Below, one piece after another: positions 15,954-64,000 of a DNA stretch of 64,000 nt (position 1 is its first letter; each line of letters begins with the position of its first letter). The DNA is from an uncultured bacterium. Lineage in GTDB: Bacteria > Omnitrophota > Omnitrophia > Omnitrophales > Aquincolibacteriaceae. The notes under the pieces are model-generated. The model had not been told where the DNA came from and searched no databases. It was given only the letters and a program-made list of their open reading frames with translations. The stretch spans positions 107,711 to 171,710 of the forward strand of contig CAZSFZ010000002.1 of the NCBI GenBank assembly GCA_964606385.1. The letters run 5' to 3'. The position numbers were made by a program, and so were the translations under genes.

Positions 15954-15994
15954 TTTGCTGCCTCCTTGATTGAATTTCCCTTATCAGGACATTC

Positions 15995-16080: not shown

Positions 16081-16083
16081 GTG

Positions 16084-16620: not shown

Positions 16621-16623
16621 GGC

Positions 16624-17310: not shown

Positions 17311-17324
17311 TGTCTTTTCCGTTC

Positions 17325-22898: not shown

Positions 22899-23399
22899 AT
22901 GGAATTCTTTCAAGAGAACATCCATCTCGCGGAGGTTGGGGTCCAGCTCGCCGCCTTTCTGATCGTCTTCTTCACGCTCAAGAAATTCGCCTGGAAACCG
23001 CTCCTGGAGATCATCCGGGCGCGGCGGGAACGCTTCGAGGACGAATGGAGCGGGATCGAGAAAACCAAGCAGAGCGTCGCGGCGCTGGAAAAGGATTACC
23101 GCCTGCATCTCCAGAAGATCGAGGAAGAGGCCCGCGCCAAGATGCAAGAAGCCGTCCAGGAAGGCCGCCGCCTCGCGCGGGAGATCCAGGAGAAAGCGCG
23201 CTTAGAATCCCAAGCCACATTCGAAAAGGCGAAGACCAATATCGACCTTGAGATCGAAAAAGCCCGGGTGACGCTCCGCCAGGAGATCGCGGGTCTCTCG
23301 ATCCGCGTGGCGGAAAAGGTGCTCGCGGAAAGGATCGACGGTTCCCAGCAGGAGAAAAAGGCTTTAGAGATCCTCGGGGAGCTTGAGAAAAAACTATGA
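22899..23399 (+). CDS. atpF: F0F1 ATP synthase subunit b
   Basis: 166 aa, N-terminal TM helix then long charged coiled coil. Confidence 0.85.
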   Translation: MEFFQENIHLAEVGVQLAAFLIVFFTLKKFAWKPLLEIIRARRERFEDEWSGIEKTKQSVAALEKDYRLHLQKIEEEARAKMQEAVQEGRRLAREIQEKARLESQATFEKAKTNIDLEIEKARVTLRQEIAGLSIRVAEKVLAERIDGSQQEKKALEILGELEKKL

Positions 23400-23953
23400 G
23401 CGACGTGATCGCCGCGGCCCGTTACACCCGCGCTCTTTTTGAACTCGCCGGAAAAGACGGTCGCCTTCCCGAGATCGACAAGGGGCTCCACGCGCTCGTC
23501 AAGGTCCTGCGCGAACAGCCCAAGGTTTTCCTTCTGATGGCGAATCCCACGCTCACGGAAGCGGAAAAATTTTCTTTGGCGATGAGCGCCCTTCCCGATC
23601 CCAGGCCGGGGCTTCTGGAAAGGTTCCTTCGGGTCCTGATCGAAAAAAAACGCTTCGCGCTTCTTCCGGAGATCCAGAAAGATTTTCACGACCGCTTCGA
23701 GAAGCAACAGGGCATCCGGGAGATCGAGCTCTTCTCGGCCGTGCCGTTCTCAAGCGGGGTCCAGGAGAAATTCAAATCCATGCTTACTAAAAAACTCCGT
23801 TCCGAGATCCGGTTGATCCCCAGGACCGATCGCGGCCTGCTCGGAGGTTTTATCCTGCGCTTTGACGGAAAAGAGATCGACTGCAGTTTCCGGAACCGTC
23901 TTCATGAGATCCAACAAAAACTTTTCAGCTCCGCCGAGGAAGGAATGATCTGA
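23396..23953 (+). CDS. atpH: F0F1 ATP synthase subunit delta (OSCP)
   Basis: 185 aa; overlaps atpF stop; OSCP-like C-terminus ([22 protein letters not shown]). Confidence 0.85.
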
Positions 23954-45820: not shown

Positions 45821-46080
45821 AGATCGAGGCGAGCGATGATCTGCTGGTATTTCTCGGGAGCCTCAGCCTGGAGGTGTTTCAGCAGCTTTTTACGGCGGCT
45901 GACCATCTTGATAAGCCCGTAGCGCGAATGGTGGTCTTTAACGTTCTTCTCAAAATGACCGGAAAGACCGTTGATGCGCTCGGTAAGGAGGGCTATCTGG
46001 ACCTCGGCGGACCCTGTGTCGTTCTTGCTGACCTTGTAGTCGGATATGATCTTTTTCTTTTTCGTCTTTGCTAATGCCAT
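45811..46080 (-). CDS. rpsO: 30S ribosomal protein S15
   Basis: 89 aa, MALAKTKKKKIISDYKVSKNDTGSAEVQIALLTERINGLSGHF... classic S15. Confidence 0.95.
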   Translation of the reverse strand: MALAKTKKKKIISDYKVSKNDTGSAEVQIALLTERINGLSGHFEKNVKDHHSRYGLIKMVSRRKKLLKHLQAEAPEKYQQIIARLDLRK

Positions 46081-46247
46081 TTTCTTCTCTAACTCCTTAT
46101 TTCTCTTATGGTTATGTCGTTTTTCTCATCTCTGAGGTTGCGGAAGTATACCCCGACCCTTCCGTTTTGTCCAGATGTTACTCATTTTTACGGTTTAAGG
46201 CATGAATGCCCCGACCTTGCGCCCAAACAGAGAATATAAGGATCCTT

Positions 46248-47993
46248 TTAACGGCATGCAGAAACACCTGTCCACTGTTCGCAGGAAGTCCGCATGGCTT
46301 CGGGATCTTCATCGAAACGTAAGTCTTGACGGTTGAAAGGGTAGATCAAACATTCCACCAGACACGCATCAGGGAATGGCGCTTTAAAGTTATCTGTAAG
46401 CGCGCGTTTTCGATGATCTGGCGGTTCTGCTGGACCTTTAATATAATAATAATCCACATCAGGATAATGCTCGACACGATCGGCGCGGGATTGAAGCCAA
46501 GCCCTTATTTTGTTGCTTTTATCAGGATCCCCTATGGCCCTAGAAAATTTGATAACCAGCAGCCGACCAACCTCACTCAGGCGACCCAATGCCGACATAT
46601 CATCTAAACCATAAAGAATCACTTTGGAATTTTGATAAACATAATAATCATCCCCGTTGGAACGGTTTCGCATCACAACCAAAGGGGAAATATTAGGCTC
46701 ATCTAGATAGTACTGTATAGCATGTATGGCGGCCGGAGGCAGGATGACCGTGAAATCGACCGCATGGGGGTTCTTTTCAACAAAAGAAGCTATGCTGGGA
46801 AAATCCAGCGAGCTGTTCTGAATATAGTCCACAGGAACATAATAACGATCCGTCAAGCCTGCTCGAAAAAATCCATAAACACATAGTGGAATAAAAAAAA
46901 CGAATGCCCCAGCGAAACGCACAAACCTTGAAGACCAAGAGGCGATCCCCGCGGCCGCCATGAGAAGAAAAAAGGGATAGCCGAACAAGAAATAACGGGG
47001 CGCTAGACTCATTCGGAACATCCAAACGCAAAACAAACAAAGACTGACGGGAACGACAATCAAAATCAGAAGGAGCAACGCCTGAGATTGTTTTTTTTGA
47101 AAAAACGAAACCCATAAAAAACTTAAAATAAATACAAGCCCTCCTAGTGGGAAAAACCCATGTATGCCACCAAAGTGATCCTGAAAAGACTCCAAAATCT
47201 CCCAACCCTGAAGTCCCCAGCTGTCCACTCCGTTCTGTCTAAATTGCAAGGCGCTATTTAATCGTTTTAGGATTGGAATGATCGCGATCAGAATCGATGC
47301 CGCCGAAATGAAGTATTGGCTTATTAACTTTTTTTGTTTTCGAAAAAAAAGAAAAAGCCAGCAAGCGTGAGCGGCTAGGAAAAACAGGCTTGGAAAAAAC
47401 GCGTAGAAGGCAAGCGCTCCGGTCGCAGCATATAAAATCCAGTCCCTCGTTTTTAGGGTCTGAACGCTTCGGCATAAAAAAAAGCTGTTCGCGATTAGTA
47501 AAAAATAATAAAGAGGATAGTCTCTCGCGGATATTGCGTAATGGATATGCCAGACAGAGACTGCCATGAAAACGCTCGCAAGAAGCCCGGACCGCGCATC
47601 AAAAAGCAAAGCGCCTAAATAAAACAAAAAAAGGATGGAGGCGAGATCAAAAAAAAGCGATGGAAGAACCAGTAAGAACTCGCTACGGCCCAAATAAAGC
47701 ACTGCGTGGAGGATAAAGTATTTCAAGGGCCCTTGATCAGGACAGATGCCTTCGATGATCTTTGACACGGGGGCTGATGCCGCAGCGATCGTGATGCCTT
47801 CCGAAAGACCAAGTTCTTCTCGAGGCAATTTTTCGAAGAAGTGAAGGCGTAGAAAAAGCGCGAATAAGGCAATCGCGCTTAAACTCAGAATGAATCTTAC
47901 TTTTTTTGAAATAAAAGTTTCCTTCAAAAAAAGACCTTTTTGGGAGAATAATTTTTGGAATAAAAGCTTTTCGCCAATTTCACATCCGAACAA
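46248..47993 (-). CDS. GT-C fold membrane glycosyltransferase (GT39/GT83, ArnT/PMT-like), noticeably lower GC than neighbours
   Basis: 581 aa, about 10 TM helices in the N-terminal two-thirds then a soluble domain; the ORF's 5' end overlaps ribF by ~70 nt (true start probably internal/non-ATG). Confidence 0.6.
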   Translation of the reverse strand: MFGCEIGEKLLFQKLFSQKGLFLKETFISKKVRFILSLSAIALFALFLRLHFFEKLPREELGLSEGITIAAASAPVSKIIEGICPDQGPLKYFILHAVLYLGRSEFLLVLPSLFFDLASILFLFYLGALLFDARSGLLASVFMAVSVWHIHYAISARDYPLYYFLLIANSFFLCRSVQTLKTRDWILYAATGALAFYAFFPSLFFLAAHACWLFLFFRKQKKLISQYFISAASILIAIIPILKRLNSALQFRQNGVDSWGLQGWEILESFQDHFGGIHGFFPLGGLVFILSFLWVSFFQKKQSQALLLLILIVVPVSLCLFCVWMFRMSLAPRYFLFGYPFFLLMAAAGIASWSSRFVRFAGAFVFFIPLCVYGFFRAGLTDRYYVPVDYIQNSSLDFPSIASFVEKNPHAVDFTVILPPAAIHAIQYYLDEPNISPLVVMRNRSNGDDYYVYQNSKVILYGLDDMSALGRLSEVGRLLVIKFSRAIGDPDKSNKIRAWLQSRADRVEHYPDVDYYYIKGPAEPPDHRKRALTDNFKAPFPDACLVECLIYPFNRQDLRFDEDPEAMRTSCEQWTGVSACR

Positions 47994-48970
47994 ATTTGGA
48001 TCTTTAAAGCGGTTTCATTGGGAAATTTTGCCTCGGGGCGAATAAAGCGATGAAGGGCGATCTCCATCATTTCCCCATAGACCTGTCCTTTGAAGTCCAA
48101 AAGATGAAGTTCCAGCACCGGACGGGGTGTTTCTGCCTTGGGATAGGTGGGACGCTTGCCAAAATTCATGACCCCCTGGAGCCAATCCCCCGGGACAGGG
48201 TCCGCGATCAACGGTCCATGCTTCATGCCCAAGTGATGGCGTGACTCACGGCCCTTGGCCCGTGGCCCAGCACTTAAAAACCTTGCCGAGGCGACATAAA
48301 CCCCAAGCGGCAACAGGATCTCGGAGTGCACCTCCAGGTTCGCCGTCGGAAAACCGAGATGGAGCCCGTGGCCTTTCCCGTGAATGACCTTGCCGAACAT
48401 GCTGAAGGGACGGCCGAGACATGCCCGGGCTTGTTCAACTTTTCCGTGCACGAGCAGTTCCCGCACACGGGAGCTTGAAACAGGTTTTTTACCGACCATG
48501 ACCGGCTTCATTCTTTTGAAAAGGAATCCGTTGGACCGGGCAAGACGGGCCATGAGGTCCGTATCGCCTCTCCTGCCGCGTCCAAAATGCGCATCATATC
48601 CCATGCAAATCTCGCGAATATGCAGTTTTTTTACAAGGATCCTCTCAACAAAATCCCGCGGCATCATGCCGGCGAAAGACGGCGTGAAGGATTGCAAAAA
48701 ACACAGATCGATCCCGGCCCGGGCCAGATAAAAGAGTTTTTGCTCGATGCTCATGAGCATCATGGGTTTCTGCTTGGGGTGAAGAATGCTGTGGGGATGC
48801 TCGGGGAATGTCAGGACCGCAGCCAGCGCGTGTTCTTTTTTTGCCTGCCGGACCACATAACGCAGGAGCTTTTGATGCCCCAGATGGAACCCGTCGAAAT
48901 TTCCAAGCGCGAGAACGACCGGCCTGGCCGGACGGGCCTTATAGCTTTGAAGATCCGATATGATCTGCAT
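47924..48970 (-). CDS. ribF: Bifunctional riboflavin kinase / FMN adenylyltransferase
   Basis: N-terminal FAD-synthetase nucleotidyltransferase (LALGNFDGFHLGHQKL) and C-terminal riboflavin kinase (PTANL...G.Y) motifs. Confidence 0.9.
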   Translation of the reverse strand: MQIISDLQSYKARPARPVVLALGNFDGFHLGHQKLLRYVVRQAKKEHALAAVLTFPEHPHSILHPKQKPMMLMSIEQKLFYLARAGIDLCFLQSFTPSFAGMMPRDFVERILVKKLHIREICMGYDAHFGRGRRGDTDLMARLARSNGFLFKRMKPVMVGKKPVSSSRVRELLVHGKVEQARACLGRPFSMFGKVIHGKGHGLHLGFPTANLEVHSEILLPLGVYVASARFLSAGPRAKGRESRHHLGMKHGPLIADPVPGDWLQGVMNFGKRPTYPKAETPRPVLELHLLDFKGQVYGEMMEIALHRFIRPEAKFPNETALKIQICSDVKLAKSFYSKNYSPKKVFF

Positions 48971-52385: not shown

Positions 52386-53625
52386 CCGCTCCTTCTTGTC
52401 CCGTCTCCTCTTGAGAGGTCTTTCCTTCGCTTTCTGCCGGCGCTACCTCTTGACTCGCCGCTTCTTCAGGCGCCGGCGTTTTATCAGCGGCCTTATTCGC
52501 GACGTTCTTTTTCGAGGCAGCTTCTTTACCCGACGCGAGGATCTTTTCAGCCGTCTTGAGACCGATCCCGGGGATCTCAGCCAATTCTTCCGCCGTTTTC
52601 TTGAGAAGGTCCTTCAAGGCCAGGATACCCGCTCCGTTCAGGATCTGTTCTGTTTTTTCGCCTACGCCGTCGAGGGCGCTCAGGGCGACTTTTTGAGAAG
52701 TGCTGCGGACATCAAGCTCCCAGCCGATCAGCTTGGACGCAAGCCGCACGTTCTGTCCTTTTTTCCCGATCGCAAGCGACAGCTGGTCATCTTCCACAAG
52801 GATCTCGGCGCTTTGCCGTTCGGGGTTTAAAGTGATCTTTTTAAGCTCAGCGGGCGCCATCGCGTTCTTGATATAGGTTTCCACATCCTCGCTGTAACGG
52901 ATGATGTCGATCTTTTCTCCGCCAAGTTCGCGAACGATGCTTTTCACGCGCTGCCCGCGAACTCCCACGCAGGAACCCACGCAGTCGATCTTTTCGTCGG
53001 AAGAAGTTACGGCGATCTTGGTGCGGGACCCGGCTTCGCGCGCCACCGCCTTGACCTTCACAAGACCATCATGGATCTCCGGCACTTCCATCGCGAAAAA
53101 TTGCGTCACAAGGTCCGGATGAGTCCGGGACAGGATCACCTCGGGCCCTTTGGAGGTTTTCTTCACTTCCATCACATAGGCGCGTACCACATTCCCCTGC
53201 CTGAAACTGTCGAGAGGTGATTGCTCGCGCGCGGGAAGGATGCCTTCGGTTTTTCCGAAGTCCACGATAATGGCTTTCGATTCGATCCGGTGCACGCTGC
53301 CGGAGACGATATCGCCCTGCTTGTGGCTGTATTCGTTAAAAATGGATTCACGCTCGGCTTCGCGGATCTTTTGAATGATGACTTGCTTGGCGGTTTGCGC
53401 AGCAATACGCCCGAACCGGGCATCGTTGATCTCTTTGCCGTCCAACAGCATGGTGATACGAAAGGTCTTTGGATCGATCTGGACGTCAAAAACATCGCCT
53501 TTTTCGGGGAAGCTCTTGCGACAGGCAGAGATCAGGGCATGGCGAAGCGCGTCCAGGAGGACCTCTTTCGTAATCCCCTTTTCCTTCTCAATATATTCCA
53601 GTGAAGCCAGCAGATCCTGTGACAT
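52378..53625 (-). CDS. nusA: Transcription termination/antitermination protein NusA
   Basis: 415 aa; N-terminal domain, S1, KH1/KH2, acidic C-terminal extension; 8-nt overlap with infB. Confidence 0.95.
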   Translation of the reverse strand: MSQDLLASLEYIEKEKGITKEVLLDALRHALISACRKSFPEKGDVFDVQIDPKTFRITMLLDGKEINDARFGRIAAQTAKQVIIQKIREAERESIFNEYSHKQGDIVSGSVHRIESKAIIVDFGKTEGILPAREQSPLDSFRQGNVVRAYVMEVKKTSKGPEVILSRTHPDLVTQFFAMEVPEIHDGLVKVKAVAREAGSRTKIAVTSSDEKIDCVGSCVGVRGQRVKSIVRELGGEKIDIIRYSEDVETYIKNAMAPAELKKITLNPERQSAEILVEDDQLSLAIGKKGQNVRLASKLIGWELDVRSTSQKVALSALDGVGEKTEQILNGAGILALKDLLKKTAEELAEIPGIGLKTAEKILASGKEAASKKNVANKAADKTPAPEEAASQEVAPAESEGKTSQEETGQEGAGE

Positions 53626-53652
53626 TTTGTCCCTGATTCCGTCCGTTTGATT

Positions 53653-53686
53653 AGAAAAAAAAGAAGTGGGTTTGTGCGCCCACTTC
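53653..53686 (-). terminator. Intrinsic terminator/attenuator in the nusA leader (GAAGUGGG-CGCACAAA-CCCACUUC followed by U8)
   Basis: Perfect 8-bp stem plus 8 Us on the minus strand, located between the predicted promoter (TSS ~53705) and the nusA start (53625). Confidence 0.6.
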
Positions 53687-53711
53687 TTCGCATGCCTTGA
53701 TTGATTTGTTT

Positions 53712-53739
53712 ATTATAGGGAAAATCCTCCCAAAGTCAA
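53712..53739 (-). promoter_or_regulatory. Strong sigma70-type promoter for nusA-infB-rbfA-truB-ribF (TTGACT-16-TATAAT)
   Basis: Minus strand reads cgTTGACTttgggaggattttcccTATAATaaac. Confidence 0.6.
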
Positions 53740-53796
53740 CGAGAGTGTCTGAAGGTTCGTAAATGGCGTTTTCATCCTAGCTCTCAGAAAAACCTG

Positions 53797-53819
53797 CAAC
53801 TCATTTAATTAAAATAGGT
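53797..53819. promoter_or_regulatory. 23-bp AT-rich motif AACTCATTTAATTAAAATAGGTT (site 2), upstream of the nusA promoter / M24 peptidase start
   Basis: Matches site 1 at 20583-20605 with swapped half-sites around the same TTTAATTAAAA core. Confidence 0.45.
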
Positions 53820-53871
53820 TATGTAAAGCCTTGTCCTTCGGGGCGTAAGTATTGCGCTTCTTGCCCCAAGC

Positions 53872-55011
53872 ATGTTATTCTCTCCCATGCCAAAACAAGA
53901 CCTCCTGATCATCGCCTCAAGCGATAAAGATGCCGACCTTTATTACGCGACGAAATTCATTGCCCCCGACCCGTTCGTTTTTGTCCAAGTCCATGGGAAA
54001 AAATACATTCTTGTAAGCGACCTCGAGATCGACCGGGCAAGGAAACAGGCCCATGTGGACGATGTCTTCTCAAGTTCCCGTCTTGCCCTGGATTACAAAC
54101 AAACCCACAAAAAAAAATGCTCCTTTATCGAGCTGGTCCTTTATTTCCTCAAAAAACTCGGGATCCATAGCGTTCTTGTCCCCGGAAATTTTCCCGTTCA
54201 ATATTACGTGCCCTTACGCCATGCCGGCCTCAGGGTCCAATACAAGCACGGGATCTTCTTTGAAGAACGTCTGATCAAGAGCCGTCCGGAGATCGTCGCG
54301 ATCACTCGGGCTTTGCGCGCTACGGAAAAAGCCGTTGATCAAGCCGTCAAGCTTTTGAGATCTTCGAAGATCCGGCGGAACAAACTTTATTTCCAGGGAA
54401 AATTACTCACGAGTGAAACCCTTCGCACCCTGATCCACCAAGCGCTTCTCGCGAACGGGTGCACCGGAGAACACACGATCGTCGCCTCCGGTCGTCACTC
54501 GATCGATCCTCACGACCAGGGATCGGGCCCGCTTGAAGCTCATCAACCGATCATCATGGATATTTTCCCGCGCAGTGAAAAAACGCTTTATTACGCGGAT
54601 TTCACCCGCACGGTCGTCCGCGGCAAAGCCTCCCCGGCCCTCAAAAAGATGTATGCCGCGGTGAAAGAAGCTCAACGGATCGCTTTTAAAATGATCCGCC
54701 ACGGCGCCCACGCGAAGAAGGTCCACGAGGCGATCCAGAACAGATTCGCGGAACTCGGATTTAAAACAGGCTTCAAAAACGGCCGGATGCAGGGATTTTT
54801 TCACAGCACGGGGCATGGGCTCGGCCTCGATATCCATGAACCGCCCCGCATCAGCGTCGGGGACGATGTGCTTAGAGAGGGCCAGGTTGTAACGGTAGAA
54901 CCCGGCCTGTATTACAAAGGCGTCGGCGGCATTCGCTTGGAAGACGTGGTCGTCGTCACCCGAAACGGCTGCAACAATCTCACGAAATTCCCCAAACAAC
55001 TCGAGATCTAA
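53872..55011 (+). CDS. M24-family metallopeptidase (Xaa-Pro aminopeptidase/creatinase-like)
   Basis: C-terminal pita-bread fold motifs [13 protein letters not shown] and [22 protein letters not shown]. Confidence 0.85.
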
Positions 55012-55017
55012 AAAACC

Positions 55018-55287
55018 ATGGAAATCCTCTTAAAGATCAGCGCGCTGGCAGGAGCGATCCTTCCTCTTTTTAATATTCCCCTCATCATGCGGATCGTGAA
55101 ACGCAAGTCCGCTGACGATATCAGTCTTGTTTGGGTATTCGGAGTTTGGATCTGCATCCTTCTCATGTCCCCTGCCGCACTCACTTCCCAAGATTTCGCC
55201 TTCAGGTCGTTCGGCTGGGCCAATGTTGTTTTCTTCACCGGCGTCGTCTTTGTCACCGTGAAGTATCATCATAAATTCAAAAAATAG
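55018..55287 (+). CDS. Small 3-TM membrane protein, possibly PQ-loop/SemiSWEET-like
   Basis: 89 aa; FNIPLIMRIVKRKSADDISL resembles a PQ-loop motif with L for Q; weak. Confidence 0.4.
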   Translation: MEILLKISALAGAILPLFNIPLIMRIVKRKSADDISLVWVFGVWICILLMSPAALTSQDFAFRSFGWANVVFFTGVVFVTVKYHHKFKK

Positions 55288-55362
55288 GGCTACGTTCTAC
55301 GGGCCACGCCCCACGCAGTAGCAACTCGTGGACCGTGGATCGGGAGCGCGTGGACCGGAAAA

Positions 55363-55731
55363 ATGCATCCCAAATACAAACGTATGCTGGAAGGTCTGAA
55401 AAAGCAGTATGGGGGAAAGAAGAAATCCTCCGACCCATGGTCCCTTTACATTCTCCGTTGCTGCGACGGAACTTTCTACACGGGCATCACGAATGACCTC
55501 GAGCGCCGCTTTAAAATGCATCAAGCGGGCAAGGCCTCCCGCTACACACGCACGCGGGGACCGGTGGAAATGCTCTACTCGGAGACGTGCGGCGACCGCT
55601 CCAGCGCCTTGATCCGTGAGTGTGAAGTGAAGGAATGGCCGCGCGCTAAAAAGCAAGCGCTGACAGAATCGGGGAATGGGAAACGGGGAACGCGGCGAAA
55701 AACGAAAGCTGTGAAACGCGCGGAAAGTTGA
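55363..55731 (+). CDS. GIY-YIG nuclease-superfamily protein (YhbQ/UPF0213-like)
   Basis: WSLYILRCCDGTFYTGITNDLERRFKMHQAGKASRYTRTRGPVEMLYSE GIY-YIG core; C-terminal basic tail overlaps a REP-like element. Confidence 0.75.
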   Translation: MHPKYKRMLEGLKKQYGGKKKSSDPWSLYILRCCDGTFYTGITNDLERRFKMHQAGKASRYTRTRGPVEMLYSETCGDRSSALIRECEVKEWPRAKKQALTESGNGKRGTRRKTKAVKRAES

Positions 55732-55780
55732 TGGTTTTGCGTTACCCGTTCCACGAGTAACGTTCCCCGCGTTAGTCCAG
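55673..55780. repeat. Long REP-like palindrome (GGGGAACG family) spanning the convergent intergenic region
   Basis: gggaatgggaaacggggaacgcggcg...gcgttacccgttccacgagtaacgttccccgcgtt; arms mutually reverse-complementary (acggggaacgcg / cgcgttccccg). Confidence 0.5.
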
Positions 55781-56398
55781 CTGATCTTCCAGCTTGCTCT
55801 TCAGCGCATCCATCTGCTTCAGAAGATAGTCCGGTACCAGGTCCTCTTCTTCCAGCTGGGTCTTCGCGGAATTCAAAAACCCGATCAATCGCCGTAAGAT
55901 AGAACCACGCTTTTGCTCTTTCATTTCCGGCGTTTCTTTCGGCGCGTGGGTCTCGAGGATCTTCTTCACCTGCGCCCGGACCTCTTTAATTTCTTTTCCC
56001 TCGTTCAGGACATCGTTCCGGAGCTCGGCGAATTCATTGGTGGGAATATTCTTGTTATTCTTCGCAAGCCGCAGCGCGTTCACGGCTTCATAATCGGGGA
56101 TCTTCCGCGGCGCCTCTTCTTCCGTGTAATCGGGCTTCACGATACGCGGTTCTTCTTTTTCAAGGAACGCGTAGGACTTGATGAGCTTGGACGCCGTCGC
56201 TTCTTTGATGTTCAGCTCTTTTTTACAATACGTCTCAAAGGCTTGGTAGCCCCAATCTTTAAAAAGCTTGTTTTTGTAGATGGAGAACAGGTGTTGTCCC
56301 AACTGGATCCAGCTGGCTTTGTGCTGTTTCGCGATCTCAACCGTTTTAACGCGTAATTCGTCGTTGCTCATAATTTTTTCCCGGGAAACGATGAACAT
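55772..56398 (-). CDS. Hypothetical K/E-rich protein, AT-richer than surroundings, flanked by REP-like elements
   Basis: 208 aa (probable start MSNDELRVK); N-terminal ~70 aa could be a helix-turn-helix-like domain; no firm family assignment. Confidence 0.5.
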   Translation of the reverse strand: MFIVSREKIMSNDELRVKTVEIAKQHKASWIQLGQHLFSIYKNKLFKDWGYQAFETYCKKELNIKEATASKLIKSYAFLEKEEPRIVKPDYTEEEAPRKIPDYEAVNALRLAKNNKNIPTNEFAELRNDVLNEGKEIKEVRAQVKKILETHAPKETPEMKEQKRGSILRRLIGFLNSAKTQLEEEDLVPDYLLKQMDALKSKLEDQLD

Positions 56399-56450
56399 GA
56401 AACGGATAACGTGAATGTTCAGCGTTCCCCGTTTCCCATTCCCCTGTTTT
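56399..56450. repeat. REP-like palindrome (gaaacggataacgtgaatg / ttcagcgttccccgtttc)
   Basis: Halves are near reverse complements; same unit family as the other elements. Confidence 0.5.
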
Positions 56451-57371
56451 CTAAATGAATTCTAACTCCACCTTTTTCGGAATGATCTTGTGTTCGTACG
56501 CCCTATCAAGAAGCTTGCGGAATCCCGCCTCCCCGTCCTGGCCGATATCGATCGTGCGATCGTTCACATACATCGCCACAAAACGGTCGTTCAGCTCGTG
56601 GGAGATGCCGCGGCCGAACTGACCCGCGTATTCTAGGGCATCTTTGCGGTGGTTCAAGGCGTATTCGATGCTTTCTTTAAAGAGTTTTGAGAACTCCAAA
56701 ATCGTTTCTTTGCCCAGGTCCCGCCGTATGATATCGATCCCGAGAGGAAGCGGCAGCTTTGTCTCTTCATACCACCAGGCCCCGAGATCCACGATCTTTT
56801 CAAGCCCATGTTGGGCGTGCGTGATCTGCCCTTCATGGATCACAAGCCCGAGATCGGCTTCTCCTGATTTTACGGCATTGAAAATTTTGTCGAAGGGAAC
56901 AAAGATGGCTTCGAAGTCGCCATCCGGGGAACGGGGAACGGGAAACGTCTTTTCTTCTATCTTTTGAAAAAGTTGCAGGGCCAGATAGGCTGTTGTCAAT
57001 TGCCCCGGGATGGCGATTCGCTTTCCGCGAATCGAGGAGAACGCTGAACGATAAGGATCCTGCGTTCCCCATTCCCCGTTAACCGTTCCCCGGGCAACAA
57101 GAATCGGCCCGTACTTATACCCCACGCTCGCGCCGGACCGCATGACGATATATGTGTCCGCGAGATAGGCATAGGCGTGACAGGAAACGGCGGTGACTTC
57201 AAGCTCGCCCTTGAGCGCGCGTTGGTTCAGGGATTCGATGTCTTCGATCACATGTTCGACCTTGAAGCCGCGCATGTCGATCTTTTCATGGGCAAGCGCG
57301 TAGAACATGAACGCGTCATCGGGGTCCGGGCTGTGGCCGATACGGATCGGGATCGTTGGGGTCTTTTTCAT
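56451..57371 (-). CDS. MqnA/MqnD-family protein (futalosine-pathway menaquinone biosynthesis, periplasmic-binding-protein-like fold)
   Basis: N-terminal IRIGHSPDPDDAFMFYAL signature typical of MqnA/MqnD. The coding sequence contains GTTCCCCGTTCCCCG-type repeat units (encoding TFPVPRSPDG and RGTVNGEWGT). Confidence 0.55.
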   Translation of the reverse strand: MKKTPTIPIRIGHSPDPDDAFMFYALAHEKIDMRGFKVEHVIEDIESLNQRALKGELEVTAVSCHAYAYLADTYIVMRSGASVGYKYGPILVARGTVNGEWGTQDPYRSAFSSIRGKRIAIPGQLTTAYLALQLFQKIEEKTFPVPRSPDGDFEAIFVPFDKIFNAVKSGEADLGLVIHEGQITHAQHGLEKIVDLGAWWYEETKLPLPLGIDIIRRDLGKETILEFSKLFKESIEYALNHRKDALEYAGQFGRGISHELNDRFVAMYVNDRTIDIGQDGEAGFRKLLDRAYEHKIIPKKVELEFI

Positions 57372-57435
57372 AGGAGCGGCATTATAGCCTGATTCTCTTT
57401 TGGGTAAAACGAGAAACGGAAAAGCGGTTCGCGAA
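57372..57435. repeat. Intergenic element with GAAACGG / GGAACGGGATAACG units (REP-like family)
   Basis: aaaacgagaaacggaaaagcggttcgcgaattacgcggaacgggataacgcgaac. Confidence 0.4.
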
Positions 57436-60400
57436 TTACGCGGAACGGGATAACGCGAACTGGCCCGCGATCTTGTCCGCCAGAGACTGGAAGAGTTGGC
57501 CCGCGGCAGTGAGGAACCGCTCGCGCATGCCCTTGTCCATTACGATCAGGTCGTCCTTGAGCTCGGCCTTGAGTTCTTCGGCGAGCATCAATTCGTCGGA
57601 ACTGATCATGCCGCGGAGGGCGGCGCCGGGCTTTGCGATCCTAGAACGGGCAAGTTTCACGTCGGTAATGACGAACACGCGGTCCTGCAAGCCTTCCTGT
57701 TTAATCAGAGCTTCCGCTTGGGCGACTAGCGCCGCGTCGTTTTTCACAAGGATCGCGAACGTGCTGTCCTTCAGGATGCTCTTCGCCATTTCGATCATAC
57801 CTTTACGCAGGGCGAGATCCGAACCCAGGATAAAGGCGTAGCCAATATTCGGGGCAAGGCCGAGGACTCGCTTCGCCGCTTCCGCATGAACCTGTTGAAC
57901 GACAGGAACTTTCGCAATCGCCGGCATAAGCGTTTCCACAGCGTTCAGCGTATGCGCCAGGAGCGGGATGATCCCGTCCATGATCTTCTCTGTGACGGAA
58001 CGTATGCCTTTTTCGCCGCTTCCTCCCCGCCGTATATTCTCGCGGACAAACAGATCATAGGTAGAGATCATGGGGGTCTTTTCCTCTACCTTCAGGACCT
58101 GATCATCCATAAAAGCCGGCACGGGCAAACTCACAAATTTCGGTAAATCGGAACCGGATTCTTTTCTAAGCTCGCTTCGAAGCGCCGCGAGTTTAGAGGT
58201 GTCTGAGGATTTTTCCCCGAATACGTAGCCGCGTACTTCGGCCGGTGTATCCATGAAAAGCGGGATCATGATCTGCTCCATGACCTTGGCATATTCCTCA
58301 TTCACCGCCTGGTCCATTCCCGGTTTTTCGTTCATCCCCGTGAACCAGTATCCCCGTTCATCGCTCGACCAAACGGTCACGAGCATATCCAGCGTCCGGC
58401 GGAGCCCGTACGTGAACGCCTGATCTTCTTTGAAGTTGGAAAGTTTTGCAAGCTGATCCTGCACATCGCCATAGATCCTGCCGATCGTTTCAGCAAGCAT
58501 GGGAGAGCGCGCATCATAGAAAGCTTTGCGCTGTCCAAGAAGCTCGTGAAGGCCCGCCAAACGCGCTAGAACCTGTTCTCGGTCCGCGGGAGCCTGGGAA
58601 GCGGGTTTCGGATCAAGCTTTTTGACCATGGAGATCCTGGGCTGCTTCTCCAGAAGATTGATGGAAAAATGCGCGAGCTCCCGGTCCTGGCCGTTCAAAA
58701 TGACCGCGCCTGTTTTTTGGAGGAAGTGAAGCTGGACGATATCTTTGATCAGGAAATACCGCATTTCCGGATGCTCGCCGGCAGCGGCAACTTCGATCAT
58801 CGCAAGCGTCCTGTCCCGGACCAGATTTTGTAACCGGACAAATTCCCTGAAAAGTTTTTCGATCCGAACCTTGAGAGCGCCGGCATCCGTCGGATCCACC
58901 GGGGCCCGGAGAAGCGCTTCAATGGCCGCCTCACTTTTAGCGATCTGACCGTAGGGAGTTTCTTTTAAAAGGATTTTTCCAAAATCCCTGCGGACATCCT
59001 GTTTCGCTTTTTCTATTTCGAATTCCGGAAAACTTTCCTGATAAAGCGCTCGATAAAGCACCTGCGCCTGCATCGAAGCCTTATCTTCAGCCTGTCGCAG
59101 AATACCTTGCCACGTCTGATTGTAGGCCTTAATGAGCTCATCATAAGCTTCCAAAGCGGTCCGTGCGGTCTCAACGCGCTGGATCCCCCAGTGAGATTGC
59201 CGTTCATTCCAGGCTTCCTGGATCCCGGAAAGGACTTTGGAAAACGAAGCCGCTTTCGGGGAAATAACAGGCTGTTTTGGAGTTTCTTCTTTCGTGACAA
59301 CAGGCGTTGTGACTGGTAAACCGGCATATTCGGCTTGAGTCACTACGGCATCCGCAACAACCCCCGCCTCCAATCCCAACCCTTCTGCCAGCGTCGTTTC
59401 GTCCATCAAAACATACTCTAAGGGCGCGGGCTCCTTGAACCGGATCCCGCCTCTCTGAACCTCAGTAGTAAAGCTTTCGATCCCCTTTTGCCTTTCGATC
59501 CCCTGCAAAGCGTTAGCCATCAGGTTTTCGAGCATTCGCGAGTGCTTGGCGTTCGTCAGAACAAGGGCCGTGCGTTCGCCGTTCGAGAAAGTAAGGGTGA
59601 CATGACTGCCGAGACGGGCAAATAAAGCTCCTTTATCGGCCGCAAGACGTTCGGGCAAGGCCCCCAGCAAGGCATTCTCCTGCTCCTGCCTCGATTGCAG
59701 CGGCGCAAAACCCAGCATCGCCAGAAGCGCGTCCTGATCGGGATCATTCGAAACGGCCACGAGACGGATGGGTTGGCGGTCCGCCTCTGCTTGCCGCACA
59801 ACCTGAGAAAGGCTCGCGAGCGTGCGGTCGATATCCTGAGCAAAGAACCATTCTTTCGCGCCCACGGTTTTAACTTGATCTTGCACCATAACTCCGGTTC
59901 TGTTTATTGTTCGAACTTCCGAGCGAATATTAGGCGTCTGCTTTTTAAGAAGTAAAAATTGGGCGCGCGGGGCGTTCGGGGCAGCCCGAACTTTATGGGT
60001 CCAGCCCTGGAGCAAGTCTTCGCGCAAACCATAATCTTCTTTTGTAACCAGGTTCGTCACTTGATAACGCACCCCCGATTCGATGAACCTCTCCAGACCG
60101 TTTTGGATCCTCGTCGCGACTTTTCCGTCGCTCTCATATTCGCTTTTATCGGTCCCTAAAATGATCGAAGCGAAAAAAACGTCTCCGGTCATTGGTATTT
60201 TTCTCGCCAAAACAAGCGAACCTTGGTGGGAAGCGTCAAATACATAATAGTGATGGCCATTGGGATCAAAGAACTGATCCCCGAACAATTCTTTCAAAGT
60301 CATGATCGCTTTATTAAGATCGGCCAGGAAACGCGGGCTTCCCCACGAAGGAATGCGGGAAGCCGTAAGAAGATCGGGCCTGAAAAGGCCCAGGATCGCC

Positions 60401-63400
60401 AGCAAAGGACGCACGTTGTCTTTGAAAAGGAATTGCGCGTTTTTCTGATCGTAATAAGAAAGATCTTCGAGCTGTTCAAAAAAGTGGCTGGTGATCACCT
60501 CTCCTTCCGCGCGCTGGTAATCAGCCCCCGCTTGCCGGATCAATTGCTTTAAAGAGGCCATGGCTGTCATGTCGCGATCGCTGATCCGGTCGATGATCCT
60601 CACGATTTCCGGTAACCGCACCGGCGTCCACTTCAAGATTTCAATGCCCAGCGGCATGGGGATTCCGATCCCGATCTCGTCCATCAATTCTGATTTTGGA
60701 TGAATTTTGTAGACCCTTCCAAGTTTTGGTTCCGAAATCCGGACTTCCTGGGCCTCCGTATCCCCCCCCACCAGATCCGAAAAAGTTCCGGGATCGATGG
60801 ATACCCGAGTGCGTGCTTTATACCCCTGGAATTCCTGTTTCTCCTCATGTTTAACGGGGGCATCCACGTTCAGATTCACCAGGAATGACTTGCCATCCTT
60901 CATTTTGAAAAGGTAGGACAAGATCGAATGATCCTGCGTCCCGAGCGATCGCGCATTGGAGTGATGGTCTAAATAGCGGGCGATATAACCGGCCCATGGC
61001 TGGTAATTGATCTTCACGCCCTGAACCAATTGTTCTGCTAAAACACGCGCCTCTGCGGGGGTAGAAGTTTCCATATAGCGCTCGAACCAGTTCCCCGCCA
61101 TGCGCACCAAAAGCGTCTCGGTGAGCTCCATGGCTTGCAAGTTCAGCGTGATCCGTTCTTTTTCATCGGCTATCGCGGCGCGAGCAGCTAGATCCTCTAT
61201 CTGTTTTTTAAAAGGATCCAATCCCGGAGAAAGACGGACTAGTATAGTTTCTTTTAAATATTTAAAAATGTCCCCATAGAAAGCGTGATGTCTGACGCTG
61301 TTATGCGCTTCAATCCCGCGCGTAGACGCATCATAGTCTTCCCGGATCGAACCATCCGGCTGTTTCTTGGGAACTTTATTCTGCCAACTCTTAAGGTCCC
61401 GGAAAGATCTGAACATCCCGAAAAGCCCCATGCCGGGCGCCGAATGTTTTCGTCTTCCGCTGATCCCCTGCCATTCAAAATCCGGCGCCTGAACAGGAAC
61501 GACATAATCGGAAGCTTCGAATTTCAATTGGGAGAACATCGCTTCCCGCTCCGCGTCTTCCTGCAACATGTTCTCGATCATCAGCGCGTGACCCATCGCC
61601 TGACCGACCACCATATCCACACGCCATGCGTTGGAAACCGACTGGTACATGCGCTCCCGGCGCCCCGCCGGATCCTTGCGCAGCGTCTTGACCGTTTTTA
61701 GGGCTTCCAGAAGACTGCGGGCTGAAGGTCTCCATTCGCCGCCCTCCTGGGTGCTTTTTTCGCTTTCGTTATAATCCACGTACACTCCGTTCAAAAGTCG
61801 CCATTCACCGCTGTGTAATTTTTCACGGAGCGTTTTATAATCGAAGGCTGGTTCTCCCTTTTCATTCAAGACTTCGATGTTTTTTCCTGTTTTCGTGTCG
61901 CGAATGATCCAGATCTCCGGGTTGCTGCCCGCGAAAGGACCGATGACTTCTCCGCCATTCGCCATCACTTTCATCATGCTTGTCGCGGAAGCTTCGAGGT
62001 CCTTGTCCGAAAGCATGACCCCGCCTTGCACGCCTTGGAAAATGATCTCGGCCTCGTAGTAGGTATAATCATCCAGAGTCGCGATGCGGTCTTCCAGGCC
62101 TAATAATTCGGACATGAACCCGATGTAAAGATAACGCTCATAGGCGTCCGCTTCGTCAAAGGTGCGACCGCCGATCAAAACGCGGCAGATCGACTCCCGG
62201 ACTTCCTGAACCGCGGCCTGGTCTTTCAGCCGAGCGCGAACCGCTTCGAATTCCCGCTGGAAACGGCCCTGGTCCTGATTTTCGCCTTTGCGGTAACTTT
62301 TCCAAAATTGAAACAAGGGATCAAACGGGCGATTGAACCTTCCGCTCCGGTCCGCGGAAATTCCCGCCTGCCGGGCCGCTTCGGCAGCCGCCGGCAAGAT
62401 CTTGCCCAAGATCTCTTCAACTTCGATCTCTTCATATTTGTCCGGGCCTTTATAAGCGACTTGTCTTCGAATATTCGAAACAACCGGATCGGCAAGAATA
62501 AGGTCGCGGATTTTTGCAAATCTTGTTTCCAGTGCATCCCAATCCTCCGGCTGGTTTGCAAAAGCAGCTTTTTGAATCAACTCCTGCATGTCTTTTAAAC
62601 GAGCCATAAGCGTTACGTCGTCCCATCCCTGCTCCCGCTGGTATTCCTTTAAGGTGTTGCCCAGCCAGTCCCGGAGCCCTTTAAACCCGCGTTTTTCCCG
62701 CAGCCAGGCCAAGAACCGGGCGGCATCCGAAGCCATGATCCATTCATTTTGAGCTTTAAAATATTCCCGCAAATCCGGATGTTTGTCCAATTCTAGGAAA
62801 AATTCCCGGTCGTTCGACGCTGGAGGAAGCCCATATTCGGGAGGTTGAAACGCGATCTGACGTTTATATTGTTCGATCAAGGCGCGCCGGGCCTTTGCCT
62901 GCCAGCGCGGGAGGAAAACCCCATTCGTGCTTCGGATCTGTTGTTGAGGATCATAAAAACCTTTGACGCGATGCCACGCAACTCGAAAAATATTCTTGAG
63001 AAGAGCGGGTAGATGTTCTACCAGATTGACGCCGGAAATAAGATCGTAGATCTCGGCCGTAAAATCCGCGATGCTGATCTTGCCGTCATGAACGATCACT
63101 GAACGCAGCCATTCCGGAAACCTGAAAAGACCATAATGGCCTTCCCACGCTTCAAAGAGTCCGGGGCGGAAAACGGTGTGGTTCAGGGTAACGCGCTTGG
63201 CTTTTTTAAGAAAAACCTGGGGGAGACTCACAAAAACCTCGTGATCAAGGATCACAAGATGGTCAGGGTCCGGGTTGCCTTCGAGCGCCTGGATCAGGCG
63301 TTCGCTTGCCTCTTGAAAGGCCGCCATGTGGATCTCACGCATCCCGGTGTCGTCGTACACTTCTTCGAAAAACGGCTCCTCTTTTCCTTCCGCGCTTTTT

Positions 63401-64000
63401 GTATAACCGTCGAGATAATACTGCGGGGACCGATGTTCCTGATAATACGTTTTGTAAACGCGGAAAAAGACCGTTGTCGGAACGCCGCGTTTGACCGTTG
63501 GTACCTTTATTTCGATCGGCGTCAATTCCATGGCTTTTTTGACGATTTCGCCAAAAAGAATACGCTGCCCCTGCGCATCCATTCCCTTGATAGGCTTGTT
63601 CTTGATAAAGTTCCATAAAGGATGGATCCCTGTGACATTCAGGCCGATAGCGGGCCAGGCCTCGAAAAGATCCGGCAAAAGAGCCCCCAAACCGCCGGTC
63701 AAGGTCGTCTGTGAAATTTGCCCGGCCTGGTAGGCGTCATGCAGTTCTTCGACTTTTTTCAAGACATGCATCGGATAGCCCGCCTCAAACTGACGGCTGT
63801 ACAGGTGCTGGTCGGCAGCCCTTGGCGTTTTGGCCGCTGCCCATGTTTTCTCTGTGACCGTACGGATTTCAGAGCGGCCGCGAAGAGCTCCCATTTCCCG
63901 GGCAAGAACCGCATGGGAAGAACCGAACTTTGCAGCGAGATCTCCTACCGTATCAGAGGGTTTCTGGTAGTTGGTTAGGATGATGTTACGGATGATATCT
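57436..64000 (-). CDS. Giant multidomain protein (>2187 aa; 5' end beyond the window): N-terminal alpha-glucan phosphorylase (GT35)-like domain plus ~1400-aa unrecognised C-terminal region
   Basis: Reading frame stays open from 63894 to the window edge. Phosphorylase-like motifs: TGGLGALLPD (cf. SGGLGVLAGD), TNGVFLPRW (cf. TNGVHxPTW), EASATSMMKVMANGGEVIGPFAGSNPEIW (cf. EASGTSGMKAALNGxLxxGTLDGANVEI, PLP lysine retained). The C-terminal two-thirds has no motif recognised by eye. Confidence 0.6.
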   Translation of the reverse strand, partial: DIIRNIILTNYQKPSDTVGDLAAKFGSSHAVLAREMGALRGRSEIRTVTEKTWAAAKTPRAADQHLYSRQFEAGYPMHVLKKVEELHDAYQAGQISQTTLTGGLGALLPDLFEAWPAIGLNVTGIHPLWNFIKNKPIKGMDAQGQRILFGEIVKKAMELTPIEIKVPTVKRGVPTTVFFRVYKTYYQEHRSPQYYLDGYTKSAEGKEEPFFEEVYDDTGMREIHMAAFQEASERLIQALEGNPDPDHLVILDHEVFVSLPQVFLKKAKRVTLNHTVFRPGLFEAWEGHYGLFRFPEWLRSVIVHDGKISIADFTAEIYDLISGVNLVEHLPALLKNIFRVAWHRVKGFYDPQQQIRSTNGVFLPRWQAKARRALIEQYKRQIAFQPPEYGLPPASNDREFFLELDKHPDLREYFKAQNEWIMASDAARFLAWLREKRGFKGLRDWLGNTLKEYQREQGWDDVTLMARLKDMQELIQKAAFANQPEDWDALETRFAKIRDLILADPVVSNIRRQVAYKGPDKYEEIEVEEILGKILPAAAEAARQAGISADRSGRFNRPFDPLFQFWKSYRKGENQDQGRFQREFEAVRARLKDQAAVQEVRESICRVLIGGRTFDEADAYERYLYIGFMSELLGLEDRIATLDDYTYYEAEIIFQGVQGGVMLSDKDLEASATSMMKVMANGGEVIGPFAGSNPEIWIIRDTKTGKNIEVLNEKGEPAFDYKTLREKLHSGEWRLLNGVYVDYNESEKSTQEGGEWRPSARSLLEALKTVKTLRKDPAGRRERMYQSVSNAWRVDMVVGQAMGHALMIENMLQEDAEREAMFSQLKFEASDYVVPVQAPDFEWQGISGRRKHSAPGMGLFGMFRSFRDLKSWQNKVPKKQPDGSIREDYDASTRGIEAHNSVRHHAFYGDIFKYLKETILVRLSPGLDPFKKQIEDLAARAAIADEKERITLNLQAMELTETLLVRMAGNWFERYMETSTPAEARVLAEQLVQGVKINYQPWAGYIARYLDHHSNARSLGTQDHSILSYLFKMKDGKSFLVNLNVDAPVKHEEKQEFQGYKARTRVSIDPGTFSDLVGGDTEAQEVRISEPKLGRVYKIHPKSELMDEIGIGIPMPLGIEILKWTPVRLPEIVRIIDRISDRDMTAMASLKQLIRQAGADYQRAEGEVITSHFFEQLEDLSYYDQKNAQFLFKDNVRPLLAILGLFRPDLLTASRIPSWGSPRFLADLNKAIMTLKELFGDQFFDPNGHHYYVFDASHQGSLVLARKIPMTGDVFFASIILGTDKSEYESDGKVATRIQNGLERFIESGVRYQVTNLVTKEDYGLREDLLQGWTHKVRAAPNAPRAQFLLLKKQTPNIRSEVRTINRTGVMVQDQVKTVGAKEWFFAQDIDRTLASLSQVVRQAEADRQPIRLVAVSNDPDQDALLAMLGFAPLQSRQEQENALLGALPERLAADKGALFARLGSHVTLTFSNGERTALVLTNAKHSRMLENLMANALQGIERQKGIESFTTEVQRGGIRFKEPAPLEYVLMDETTLAEGLGLEAGVVADAVVTQAEYAGLPVTTPVVTKEETPKQPVISPKAASFSKVLSGIQEAWNERQSHWGIQRVETARTALEAYDELIKAYNQTWQGILRQAEDKASMQAQVLYRALYQESFPEFEIEKAKQDVRRDFGKILLKETPYGQIAKSEAAIEALLRAPVDPTDAGALKVRIEKLFREFVRLQNLVRDRTLAMIEVAAAGEHPEMRYFLIKDIVQLHFLQKTGAVILNGQDRELAHFSINLLEKQPRISMVKKLDPKPASQAPADREQVLARLAGLHELLGQRKAFYDARSPMLAETIGRIYGDVQDQLAKLSNFKEDQAFTYGLRRTLDMLVTVWSSDERGYWFTGMNEKPGMDQAVNEEYAKVMEQIMIPLFMDTPAEVRGYVFGEKSSDTSKLAALRSELRKESGSDLPKFVSLPVPAFMDDQVLKVEEKTPMISTYDLFVRENIRRGGSGEKGIRSVTEKIMDGIIPLLAHTLNAVETLMPAIAKVPVVQQVHAEAAKRVLGLAPNIGYAFILGSDLALRKGMIEMAKSILKDSTFAILVKNDAALVAQAEALIKQEGLQDRVFVITDVKLARSRIAKPGAALRGMISSDELMLAEELKAELKDDLIVMDKGMRERFLTAAGQLFQSLADKIAGQFALSRSA

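Follow-up and report, generated by a model that had tools for sequence, protein, structure and literature searches.

We analysed a minus-strand open reading frame (ORF) at the end of a 64,000-nucleotide (nt) stretch of DNA from an uncultured Omnitrophota bacterium (GenBank assembly GCA_964606385.1, contig CAZSFZ010000002.1, positions 107,711 to 171,710), which is called the window below. The ORF, at 57436-63999, is the last quarter of a gene of 8,126 codons. Its product consists of gene-sized units, and the pentapeptide R-S-E-x-R marks the boundaries of these units in low-confidence, disordered linkers. One of them, unit A, is, as judged from its predicted structure, a deep, rare and very divergent branch of the fold of GT35 alpha-glucan phosphorylases, with an intact catalytic set. 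The best explanation of the observations as a whole, which we consider to have an even chance of being right, is a modular giant gene whose product, including the GT35-like unit A, would be an operon-like polyprotein cut at R-S-E-x-R.

The giant gene and the R-S-E-x-R motif

The frame, with its stop codon at 57436-57438, ran without interruption for 2,187 codons to base 63999 at the window edge, in agreement with an earlier note on this DNA made without database searches. That note had described a protein of more than 2,187 amino acids (aa), with its first Met at 63894. This is the first ATG in the frame, but it is not the gene start: the identical Logan contig SRR15237811_10501, located via exact look-up of the Mqn protein encoded next to the giant gene, matched the window with 100% identity across 7,550 nt, and the gene was called on it as 8,126 aa. 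Extension of the contig thus bore out the claim of a giant protein, of which the window holds the 3' end only. Upstream of the window edge the frame continues for about 5,900 aa more, with unrelated units. The readable part of the Logan contig (L049) added 1,124 aa upstream of the window frame, comprising two further units: a Dus-type unit (PF01207, E 3e-13) and a kinase-like unit bounded by RSEMR and RSEIR, for which the Pfam matches were weak (ABC1, E 0.005; APH, E 0.048) and no NCBIfam match was found.

Three copies of R-S-E-x-R were present in the window ORF (aa 42, 1359 and 1941, numbered from the first full codon at base 63999), and most of the 16 homologues found first had three to five. 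Our sequence statistics for the window gene cover its final 3,311 aa, where RSE.R was observed four times against 0.065 expected (P 7e-7); in pooled ORFs of more than 2,000 aa it was observed 221 times against 3.6 expected from composition. Compared with every ORF or frame of 100-1000 aa from the same loci, the motif was about 20 times denser, and it was the most frequent gapped 5-mer in an unbiased count. The median distance between motifs was 260 aa. The only other in-gene copy in the window, an RSEIR in the ATP synthase delta subunit (23396-23953), lies within the OSCP domain and was taken as chance.

The x position was mostly L, V, A, M, T, I or S, and the flanks were rich in A, S, P, G, T and E and otherwise unconserved. 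Third codon positions within the motif were nearly free, the final Arg used all six codons at background frequency, and no conservation was seen beyond the 15 nt. This pattern indicates that selection acts on the peptide. A signal at the RNA or DNA level was rejected on the same grounds, and Rfam gave no family match in window positions 53000-64000.

The position of the motif was compared with homology breakpoints and with two AlphaFold models, model 1 for unit A and model 2 for units B and C. All three motif sites in the window sit in segments with a predicted local distance difference test score (pLDDT) below 50. Twenty-eight BLAST alignments started within 5 aa of a motif in both query and subject, many of them at distance 0. 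Compared with its close relative P0084, the query was 89% identical from 2 aa before the motif onward, while the sequences upstream were unrelated (Dus-like versus UDPGP). Enrichment, homology breakpoints and low-confidence linkers thus show a conserved short motif at the junctions, as in a polyprotein, and the motifs delimit units where the earlier reading had seen no delimiters.

Within the window, all on the minus strand, the ORF begins with the last 41 residues of the kinase-like unit (63877..63999); both this unit and the gene run past the window edge, as shown by the L049 extension. Homologues of the kinase-like unit also lie upstream of the phosphorylase-like unit in P0084 and L012. The junction motif RSEIR follows (aa 42-46, 63862..63876; pLDDT below 50 at model 1 residues 1-8), and BLAST alignments to many relatives begin exactly there and at RSE.R of the subject. 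The catalytic part of unit A, with a divergent GT35-type GT-B fold, spans about aa 47-840 (61480..63861; the C-terminal boundary is approximate), and includes EASATSMMK (aa 669-677, 61969..61995), which aligns with EASGTSNMK of phosphorylases and holds the presumed Schiff-base lysine K677 for pyridoxal phosphate (PLP). It is followed by an extension specific to the family, at about aa 841-1358 (59926..61479), predicted as a helical bundle, a beta-sandwich and a helical tail. The second junction motif, RSEVR (aa 1359-1363, 59911..59925), falls in model 2 residues 1-11, with pLDDT below 50, and unit B homologues in L003, L006, L033 and L005 begin with RSE.R at the matching position. Unit B (aa 1364-1940, 58180..59910) is an orphan with an alpha/beta domain, a linker and a long helical domain. 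The third motif, RSELR (aa 1941-1945, 58165..58179), belongs to a stretch of 55 residues (572-626 of model 2) whose pLDDT is below 50; in this column RSE.R was present in 15 of the 16 aligned sequences, query included, and L023 has RVDRR. The conserved terminal unit C (aa 1946-2187 and the stop codon at 57436-57438; 57436..58164) has a Rossmann-like alpha/beta core and ends with ...LSRSA. The gene had been described as a two-part fusion of a phosphorylase and one large C-terminal region; that region turned out to be three things, namely the unit A extension, unit B and unit C.

Textbook Sec signal peptides were found directly after the motif in two units of L002, as in RSEVR-MSAISKLVITGLLVLGLQAQSALA|QMT, and at residue 1055 of P0084. 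Since they stand directly after the motif, the units look like former independent proteins. At these sites (L002 ORF aa 204 and 682, P0084 aa 1055; 13 in all) the signal peptide has a positively charged start, a hydrophobic core and A-x-A, and at one of them the motif has a Met directly after it. A hydrophobic 14-mer followed 13 of 243 motifs, compared with 2.2% of control windows.

A scan of species-representative genomes yielded 48 related loci, most of them labelled Omnitrophota or Omnitrophica and the others labelled "uncultured bacterium", Elusimicrobia, Planctomycetia or Eisenbacteria. The ORF that holds unit A in these loci ranged from 2.6 to more than 7.8 thousand aa (kaa), and the motif occurred in it as many as 19 times. 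The order giant gene, Mqn gene, 208-aa gene and M24 peptidase gene was kept in at least 14 Omnitrophota loci, and the downstream neighbours were 57-88% identical, while the giant genes (3.2-8.1 kaa) differed in length and unit content. Because the neighbours are conserved and the giant gene is variable, we regard the giant genes as positional orthologues with fast turnover of units.

In its kinase-like unit and unit A, the 6,796-aa protein P0084 had 89% identity with the query; for units B and C the value was 76%. Its chain consists of an N-terminal unit, a URO-D unit, a beta-rich unit with its own signal peptide, a unit with weak likeness to sigma-70 region 4, PPDK_N with PEP-utilizers, a UDP-glucose pyrophosphorylase unit (UDPGP), the kinase-like unit and units A, B and C, so that UDPGP, kinase-like and GT35-like units stand side by side. 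The N-terminal unit of P0084 begins in the hydrophobic core of the signal peptide of its orthologues, its first residues being missing. In the closest species representative (L001, 76% identical in unit A), one unit between motifs holds a receiver domain, another a URO-D domain and a third a MarC membrane protein in full; positions 2-202 of the 203 in the MarC profile are matched within one 223-aa unit. Alpha-amylase, UDP-glucose dehydrogenase and GNAT units occur in other members, as does a weak GlgE_C match. The alpha-amylase, UDP-glucose dehydrogenase and GlgE_C members, together with UDPGP in P0084, suggest a glucan and sugar-nucleotide theme around unit A. The presence of several self-contained units in one ORF, which characterises a polyprotein, was thus seen in L001, in P0084, in the Dus unit of the window gene and in the stand-alone relatives of unit A described below.

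Directly upstream of the giant gene, L007 and L008 have a second long ORF (1,859 aa and 2,089 aa) with four R-S-E-x-R, so one genome can hold several such genes side by side. In the giant proteins of L013 and L014, which lack R-S-E-x-R, a different string, GARLA, was recurrent (in the 7,356 aa of L014, GARL occurs seven times and ARLA eight times). GARLA was also found just upstream of unit A in P0007, and it may be an alternative junction motif.

Unit A and the GT35 phosphorylases

All the GT35 motif blocks named in the earlier note were present in unit A, plus two more: TGGLGAL (aa 101-107), LNHTVFRPG (aa 272-280), STNGVFLPRW (aa 357-366), RRQVAYKGPD (aa 511-520), EASATSMMK (aa 669-677), ANGG (aa 680-683) and GSNPEI (aa 691-696). 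The search with profile hidden Markov models (HMMs) proposed there as a check gave scores below every curated threshold. PF00343 produced a signal over the PLP-lysine region, covering only 58 residues (aa 639-696), but at 18.8 bits it stayed below the gathering score of 27, and TIGR02094 (15.9 bits, cut-off 191.7) and TIGR02093 (13.6 bits, cut-off 552.9) were likewise missed. Judged by curated HMM thresholds, unit A therefore falls outside GT35, and this weighs against its assignment to the family. Several of its homologues carry a precomputed PF00343 match, which reaches 30.4 bits in P0012.

A protein search gave 16 relatives of unit A, all giant (1.4-3.7 kaa) and all from metagenome-assembled genomes of Omnitrophica or Elusimicrobiota, which have in common a block of about 1,300 aa corresponding to query aa 42-1358. 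In alignments of 15-17 sequences, with 23-58% identity to the query, the invariant residues were T-G-G-L-G, N-H of NHT, N-G of TNG, R-R-Q-V-x-Y-K-G-P, G-G-R, Y of E-N-Y, E-A-x-x-T-x-x-x-K and N. When the PDB was searched with the profile of this family, only phosphorylases were matched, the best being yeast glycogen phosphorylase (E 3e-7) across the PLP-lysine motif. The AlphaFold2 model of aa 42-1241 had a pLDDT of 83.5 and a predicted TM-score (pTM) of 0.81, and it shows the GT-B fold of two Rossmann domains that is characteristic of GT35. In a Foldseek search of the PDB with this model, every one of the top 50 matches was a glycogen or maltodextrin phosphorylase (probability 1.00, E 7e-15 to 1e-13), with alignments of 890-930 columns, 12-14% identity and a target-normalised TM-score of about 0.5. 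The motif blocks are thus more than chance, because the family profile matches only phosphorylases in the PDB and the predicted fold agrees.

The residues expected of a working phosphorylase were also present in the sequence: the PLP Schiff-base lysine motif followed by N-G (EASATSMMK and ANGG), the basic residues for phosphate binding (RRQVAYK, aa 511-517), the GGLG loop (TGGLG, aa 101-105) and the His of NHT (aa 273-275). With the family profile, three stand-alone relatives of 577-734 aa were found (P0055, P0062 and P0064; domain E 1e-24 to 1e-27), and P0062 aligned to residues 567-704 of rabbit muscle phosphorylase. Through this alignment, R-R-x-x-x-Y-K corresponds to K568/R569...K574, which we take to be the phosphate-binding residues K568, R569 and K574 of the rabbit enzyme, and K677 corresponds to the PLP lysine.

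Unit A thus shares with GT35 alpha-glucan phosphorylases a GT-B fold that superposes across about 900 columns, and the GGLG loop, NHT, TNG, R-R-x-x-x-Y-K, EAS.TS.MK with the PLP lysine, and N-G in identical order. It differs from them in its low identity in the structural alignment (only 12-14%), in scores below the curated HMM thresholds, in GGR instead of GGK, and in an extension of about 500 aa without assigned fold family. Helical insertions between TNG and RRxxxYK and between RRxxxYK and GGR are presumably longer in unit A, judged against the rabbit numbering that we assumed.

An exhaustive search of 1.84 billion cluster representatives returned 78 matches at E up to 1e-3. Forty-two of these had E up to 1e-30, and most of the 42 were 2-7.5 kaa long. 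The strong matches were almost never stand-alone; most lay within proteins of 2-8 kaa, and the short ones were mostly contig fragments. The extension (aa 841-1358) was conserved together with the catalytic part in the homologues and had no PDB, Pfam or NCBIfam match; part of it also occurred in stand-alone relatives (P0062 domain 3).

Because the PLP lysine and the residues that bind phosphate and glucose are kept, unit A is probably an active PLP-dependent phosphorylase of alpha-glucan or a related glycoside. We hold catalytic activity of this type to be likely, as read from the sequence, and alpha-glucan as the substrate only tentatively.

Units B and C, the N-terminal unit and the surrounding genes

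The earlier observation that the remaining approximately 1,400 residues carry no recognisable catalytic or binding motif held up, as no Pfam, NCBIfam or PDB sequence match was obtained for them. Units B and C had no significant Pfam, NCBIfam or PDB profile match, and unit C is without family assignment. The C-terminal 829 aa gave no match in word-index protein searches, whether used singly or in an alignment of 16 rows, and the homologues of both units came solely from translated genome loci and the exhaustive representative search. Model 2, made with a shallow alignment of substrings of database proteins, was of moderate confidence (pLDDT 69).

Unit B (about 580 aa, aa 1359-1940 including the motif) was present in only a few relatives. 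It occurs twice in tandem in L005 (nt 14246-17725), and in P0084 (aa 5844-6030) its first 55 aa or so are repeated around an additional R-S-E-x-R, a pattern suggestive of past rearrangement at junctions. In all 18 loci and 8 database proteins that have it, unit C (247 aa, aa 1941-2187 including the motif) formed the very C-terminal end, although some of these 26 sequences represent the same gene. The motif stood directly before it in 15 of the 18 loci. Unit C was present only in motif-bearing proteins and absent from all 47 family sequences without RSE.R. In L023, it was 76% identical to that of the query, whereas unit A was only 27% identical.

Every complete protein with unit A opens with one shared N-terminal unit of about 600 aa. 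In the orthologues it has a Sec-type signal peptide followed by the motifs HIQEAHAN...LEGAG...ITGGFHTEG, and it gave weak matches to PF04187 (Tiki/ChaN) in three of six sequences (E 0.009-0.28) and no NCBIfam match. Members of about 2.2 kaa without R-S-E-x-R also have this unit. The ancestral protein probably had two parts, the N-terminal unit and unit A, to which one large Omnitrophota branch has since added units at motif-bearing junctions.

At the other end, nearly all of 30 complete giant ORFs closed with a short, conserved tail whose last residue is Ala (...ATARSA, ...ISSMA, ...ISTMA, ...ISVAA or ...GSAA). The tails resemble Ala-terminated degradation or sorting tags and could be a recognition signal. 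The idea that a C-terminus ...ARSA mimics the left half of the motif was dropped as not general, since other motif-bearing members end with ...SMA, ...TMA or ...AA.

The gene next to the giant ORF (56451-57371) is of the MqnA/MqnD type, as had been proposed (VitK2_biosynth, PF02621, E 2e-70). An M24 peptidase gene and then nusA, infB, truB and ribF lie further downstream, and this gene set is an ordinary chromosomal context. The "REP-rich patch" ascribed to the region was an overstatement: we found a single perfect inverted-repeat pair of 23 nt, besides a few degenerate copies. The members of the pair (55671-55693 and 56422-56444; GGGGAATGGGAAACGGGGAACGC and its complement) sit in the intergenic gaps on either side of the ORF 55772-56398, and degenerate TTCCCCGTT-type copies are at 55722-55754 and 57045-57091, the latter within the Mqn gene. 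The ORF 55772-56398 (minus strand, 208 aa) was 68-88% identical in 14 Omnitrophota loci, always two genes downstream of the giant gene, and had no Pfam or NCBIfam match; its helix-rich product looks like a small DNA-binding protein. At 55297-55731, ORFs of 119 aa (minus) and 122 aa (plus) overlap on the two strands, and counterparts of the translated 119-aa frame in 13 loci had 33-51% identity, with both orientations to the giant gene represented. Elsewhere in the window, the G+C content falls to 0.44 at 46001-48000, compared with 0.52-0.58 in the rest. The dip spans a 581-aa ORF (46248-47993) with a match to PMT_2 (dolichyl-phosphate-mannose-type glycosyltransferase), and the stretch may have been horizontally acquired.

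Interpretation of the motif and of the chain

In the mechanism that we propose, the 8,126-codon gene would be translated as one chain of gene-sized units joined by disordered linkers, an endoprotease would recognise R-S-E-x-R in each linker, and the units would be released after translation. They would then be equivalent to the products of an operon, with sugar-nucleotide and glucan enzymes as neighbours in the chain. In one large Omnitrophota branch, operon-like sets of enzymes, membrane proteins, regulators and secreted proteins with signal peptides would be made as a single chain of 3-8 kaa or longer. This reading is suggested because proteases acting in trans recognise just such sites, short strict motifs in linkers that are disordered and not conserved otherwise, and because units that bear a signal peptide or are whole membrane proteins make most sense if released. 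Proteolytic release at R-S-E-x-R, with the gene as an operon-like polyprotein and recognition by an endoprotease inferred, has in our estimate slightly less than an even chance. The more specific proposal, that R-S-E-x-R is the processing site of a chromosomal bacterial polyprotein system with a dedicated endoprotease, and that units are gained, lost and exchanged at the motif, is a possible but tentative one.

Several observations weigh against processing. No junction protease was identified among the candidates considered, which were the N-terminal unit and the M24 peptidase. The N-terminal unit was demoted to a lead, being equally present in motif-less members and having weak PF04187 matches; the neighbouring M24 peptidase found no support, as its synteny is like that of the surrounding housekeeping genes, and the M24 family consists of exopeptidases. 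Three relatives of 7.3-7.9 kaa (L014, L021 and L022) have zero or one RSE.R, which indicates that equally long chains do not need the motif. The orthologues start with a Sec-type signal peptide, so that the cytoplasmic-type enzymes in the chain are hard to reconcile with it unless they are released or the topology is unusual, and the internal segments resembling signal peptides could be membrane anchors instead. The motif also has a codon-family bias, its first Arg being CGN in 96% and its Ser TCN in 92%, which may reflect common descent or a constraint at the nucleotide level.

The main rival to the polyprotein reading is that the chain stays uncut, as a membrane-associated multi-enzyme megaprotein in which the motif serves as a hinge, a docking site for a partner or a site of serine modification. 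Giant, multi-domain, membrane-associated proteins with hundreds of different Pfam families are reported to be typical of Omnitrophota (Nielsen and Lui, 10.64898/2026.06.07.730766). The missing protease and the motif-less relatives of similar length agree with an uncut chain, and tethering would also benefit adjacent units of related function. We consider it unlikely, however, because a strict five-residue motif in unconserved disordered flanks is typical of the site of a trans-acting enzyme, because close relatives swap whole units at the motif, and because units with a complete Sec signal peptide after the motif, or a complete six-helix MarC, would be hard to use uncut. The swapping of units could also mean that the motif is the translated footprint of a recombination or cassette-insertion junction at the DNA level and has no role as a peptide. 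The fast turnover of unit content with breakpoints at the motif, the discordant identities of units C and A in L023, the duplications at junctions in L005 and P0084 and the bias in the first two motif codons are in line with such a footprint. The pattern nevertheless fits amino acids: third codon positions have hardly any constraint, the codon at x varies, all six codons serve for the last Arg at background frequency, nothing is conserved beyond 15 nt, and a 15-nt site with five free positions would be a poor target for a recombinase. A footprint of this kind is therefore very improbable.

Scarcely more probable is the original proposal of a single enzyme, in which the phosphorylase is fused to one large novel C-terminal region that would give it a new role in carbohydrate processing or scaffolding. 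The extension of unit A is in keeping with it, being always attached to and conserved with the catalytic part and partly present in stand-alone relatives, and its beta-sandwich, in the predicted model, could bind carbohydrate. What follows after aa 1358, however, is two independent units, each with its own distribution among genomes, and the ORF continues far upstream with unrelated units. The novel function had been deduced from the size of the fusion, and this deduction found no support, the window holding only the last 27% of a multi-unit product. As a finding that would refute the proposal, the note had named a fusion of several ordinary genes generated by a frameshift. Several units of the size of ordinary genes are indeed fused, and that they are gene-sized and functionally unrelated is the sole point in favour of an artefact, in which misassembly or sequencing frameshifts joined separate genes. 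The fusion is nevertheless genuine and conserved, since an independent assembly has the identical sequence and the architecture recurs, with long open frames, in dozens of metagenome-assembled genomes; the 48 loci that show it come from many studies. An in-frame conserved motif, instead of stops and starts, stands at the junctions. With an identical independent assembly and many orthologues, the chance of an artefact is negligible.

In its logic, the giant gene appears closest, by analogy, to MARTX toxins and viral polyproteins, without their defining domains. MARTX toxins of Vibrio and its relatives are single polypeptides of 3.5-5 kaa with conserved N- and C-terminal parts, glycine-rich repeats and strain-variable effector units, which are exchanged whole and are freed by cleavage in unstructured linkers by an internal cysteine protease domain that is activated by inositol hexakisphosphate and cuts after Leu. 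No glycine-rich A/B/C repeat and no C80 Pfam match was found in the scanned sequence of the query, P0084 and the homologues, and the units are housekeeping-type enzymes, membrane proteins and regulators instead of toxins. Viral polyproteins and the gingipains RgpA and Kgp also hold several proteins per ORF, with a junction motif read by a protease. There, both protease and cleavage have been demonstrated experimentally, whereas in the giant Omnitrophota genes both are inferred. To the best of our knowledge, the number of motifs (up to 19 per ORF) and the diversity of units exceed those of any bacterial polyprotein.

The window gene shows the features of the giant proteins of Omnitrophota, namely the phylum, a very long ORF with many unrelated Pfam families, and a signal peptide (known here from orthologues) and/or transmembrane segments. 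In both, domains of the glycosyltransferase type are common and cleavage after translation has been suggested. It differs in having a pentapeptide at unit boundaries and a conserved syntenic slot, and at 8.1 kaa it is below the cut-off of 10 kaa used for the published giants, which reach 147 kaa. For those proteins, cleavage was proposed from peptidase domains with the cleavage points stated to be unknown, and the missing cleavage points prevented unit-wise analysis (West-Roberts et al. 2023, 10.1101/2023.11.21.568195). A catalogue of 2026 lists 916 long proteins, and the word "motif" does not occur in its text (Nielsen and Lui, 10.64898/2026.06.07.730766); the 2023 paper likewise makes no mention of a junction motif. 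Searches of the accessible literature with the motif strings, and with "polyprotein" together with Omnitrophica, returned nothing relevant. We concluded that the gene is a member of the long-protein phenomenon of Omnitrophota, of which the deep GT35-like branch and the junction pentapeptide were not found described.

It is an explicitly open question whether Omnitrophota giants work as single molecules or are cut, and at which places; the motif offers a concrete and testable cutting rule. It could be used to split giant ORFs into units for structure prediction and annotation; it gives proteomics defined sites at which to look for new termini, and it is usable as bait for the protease. Regardless of cleavage, the organisation of the gene is unusual, with operon-like units fused in frame and turning over fast in a fixed chromosomal slot. 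If the processing reading is true, R-S-E-x-R would give a cleavage rule, the first one for giant proteins in this phylum, and the gene would represent an organisation that has not been described for cellular organisms.

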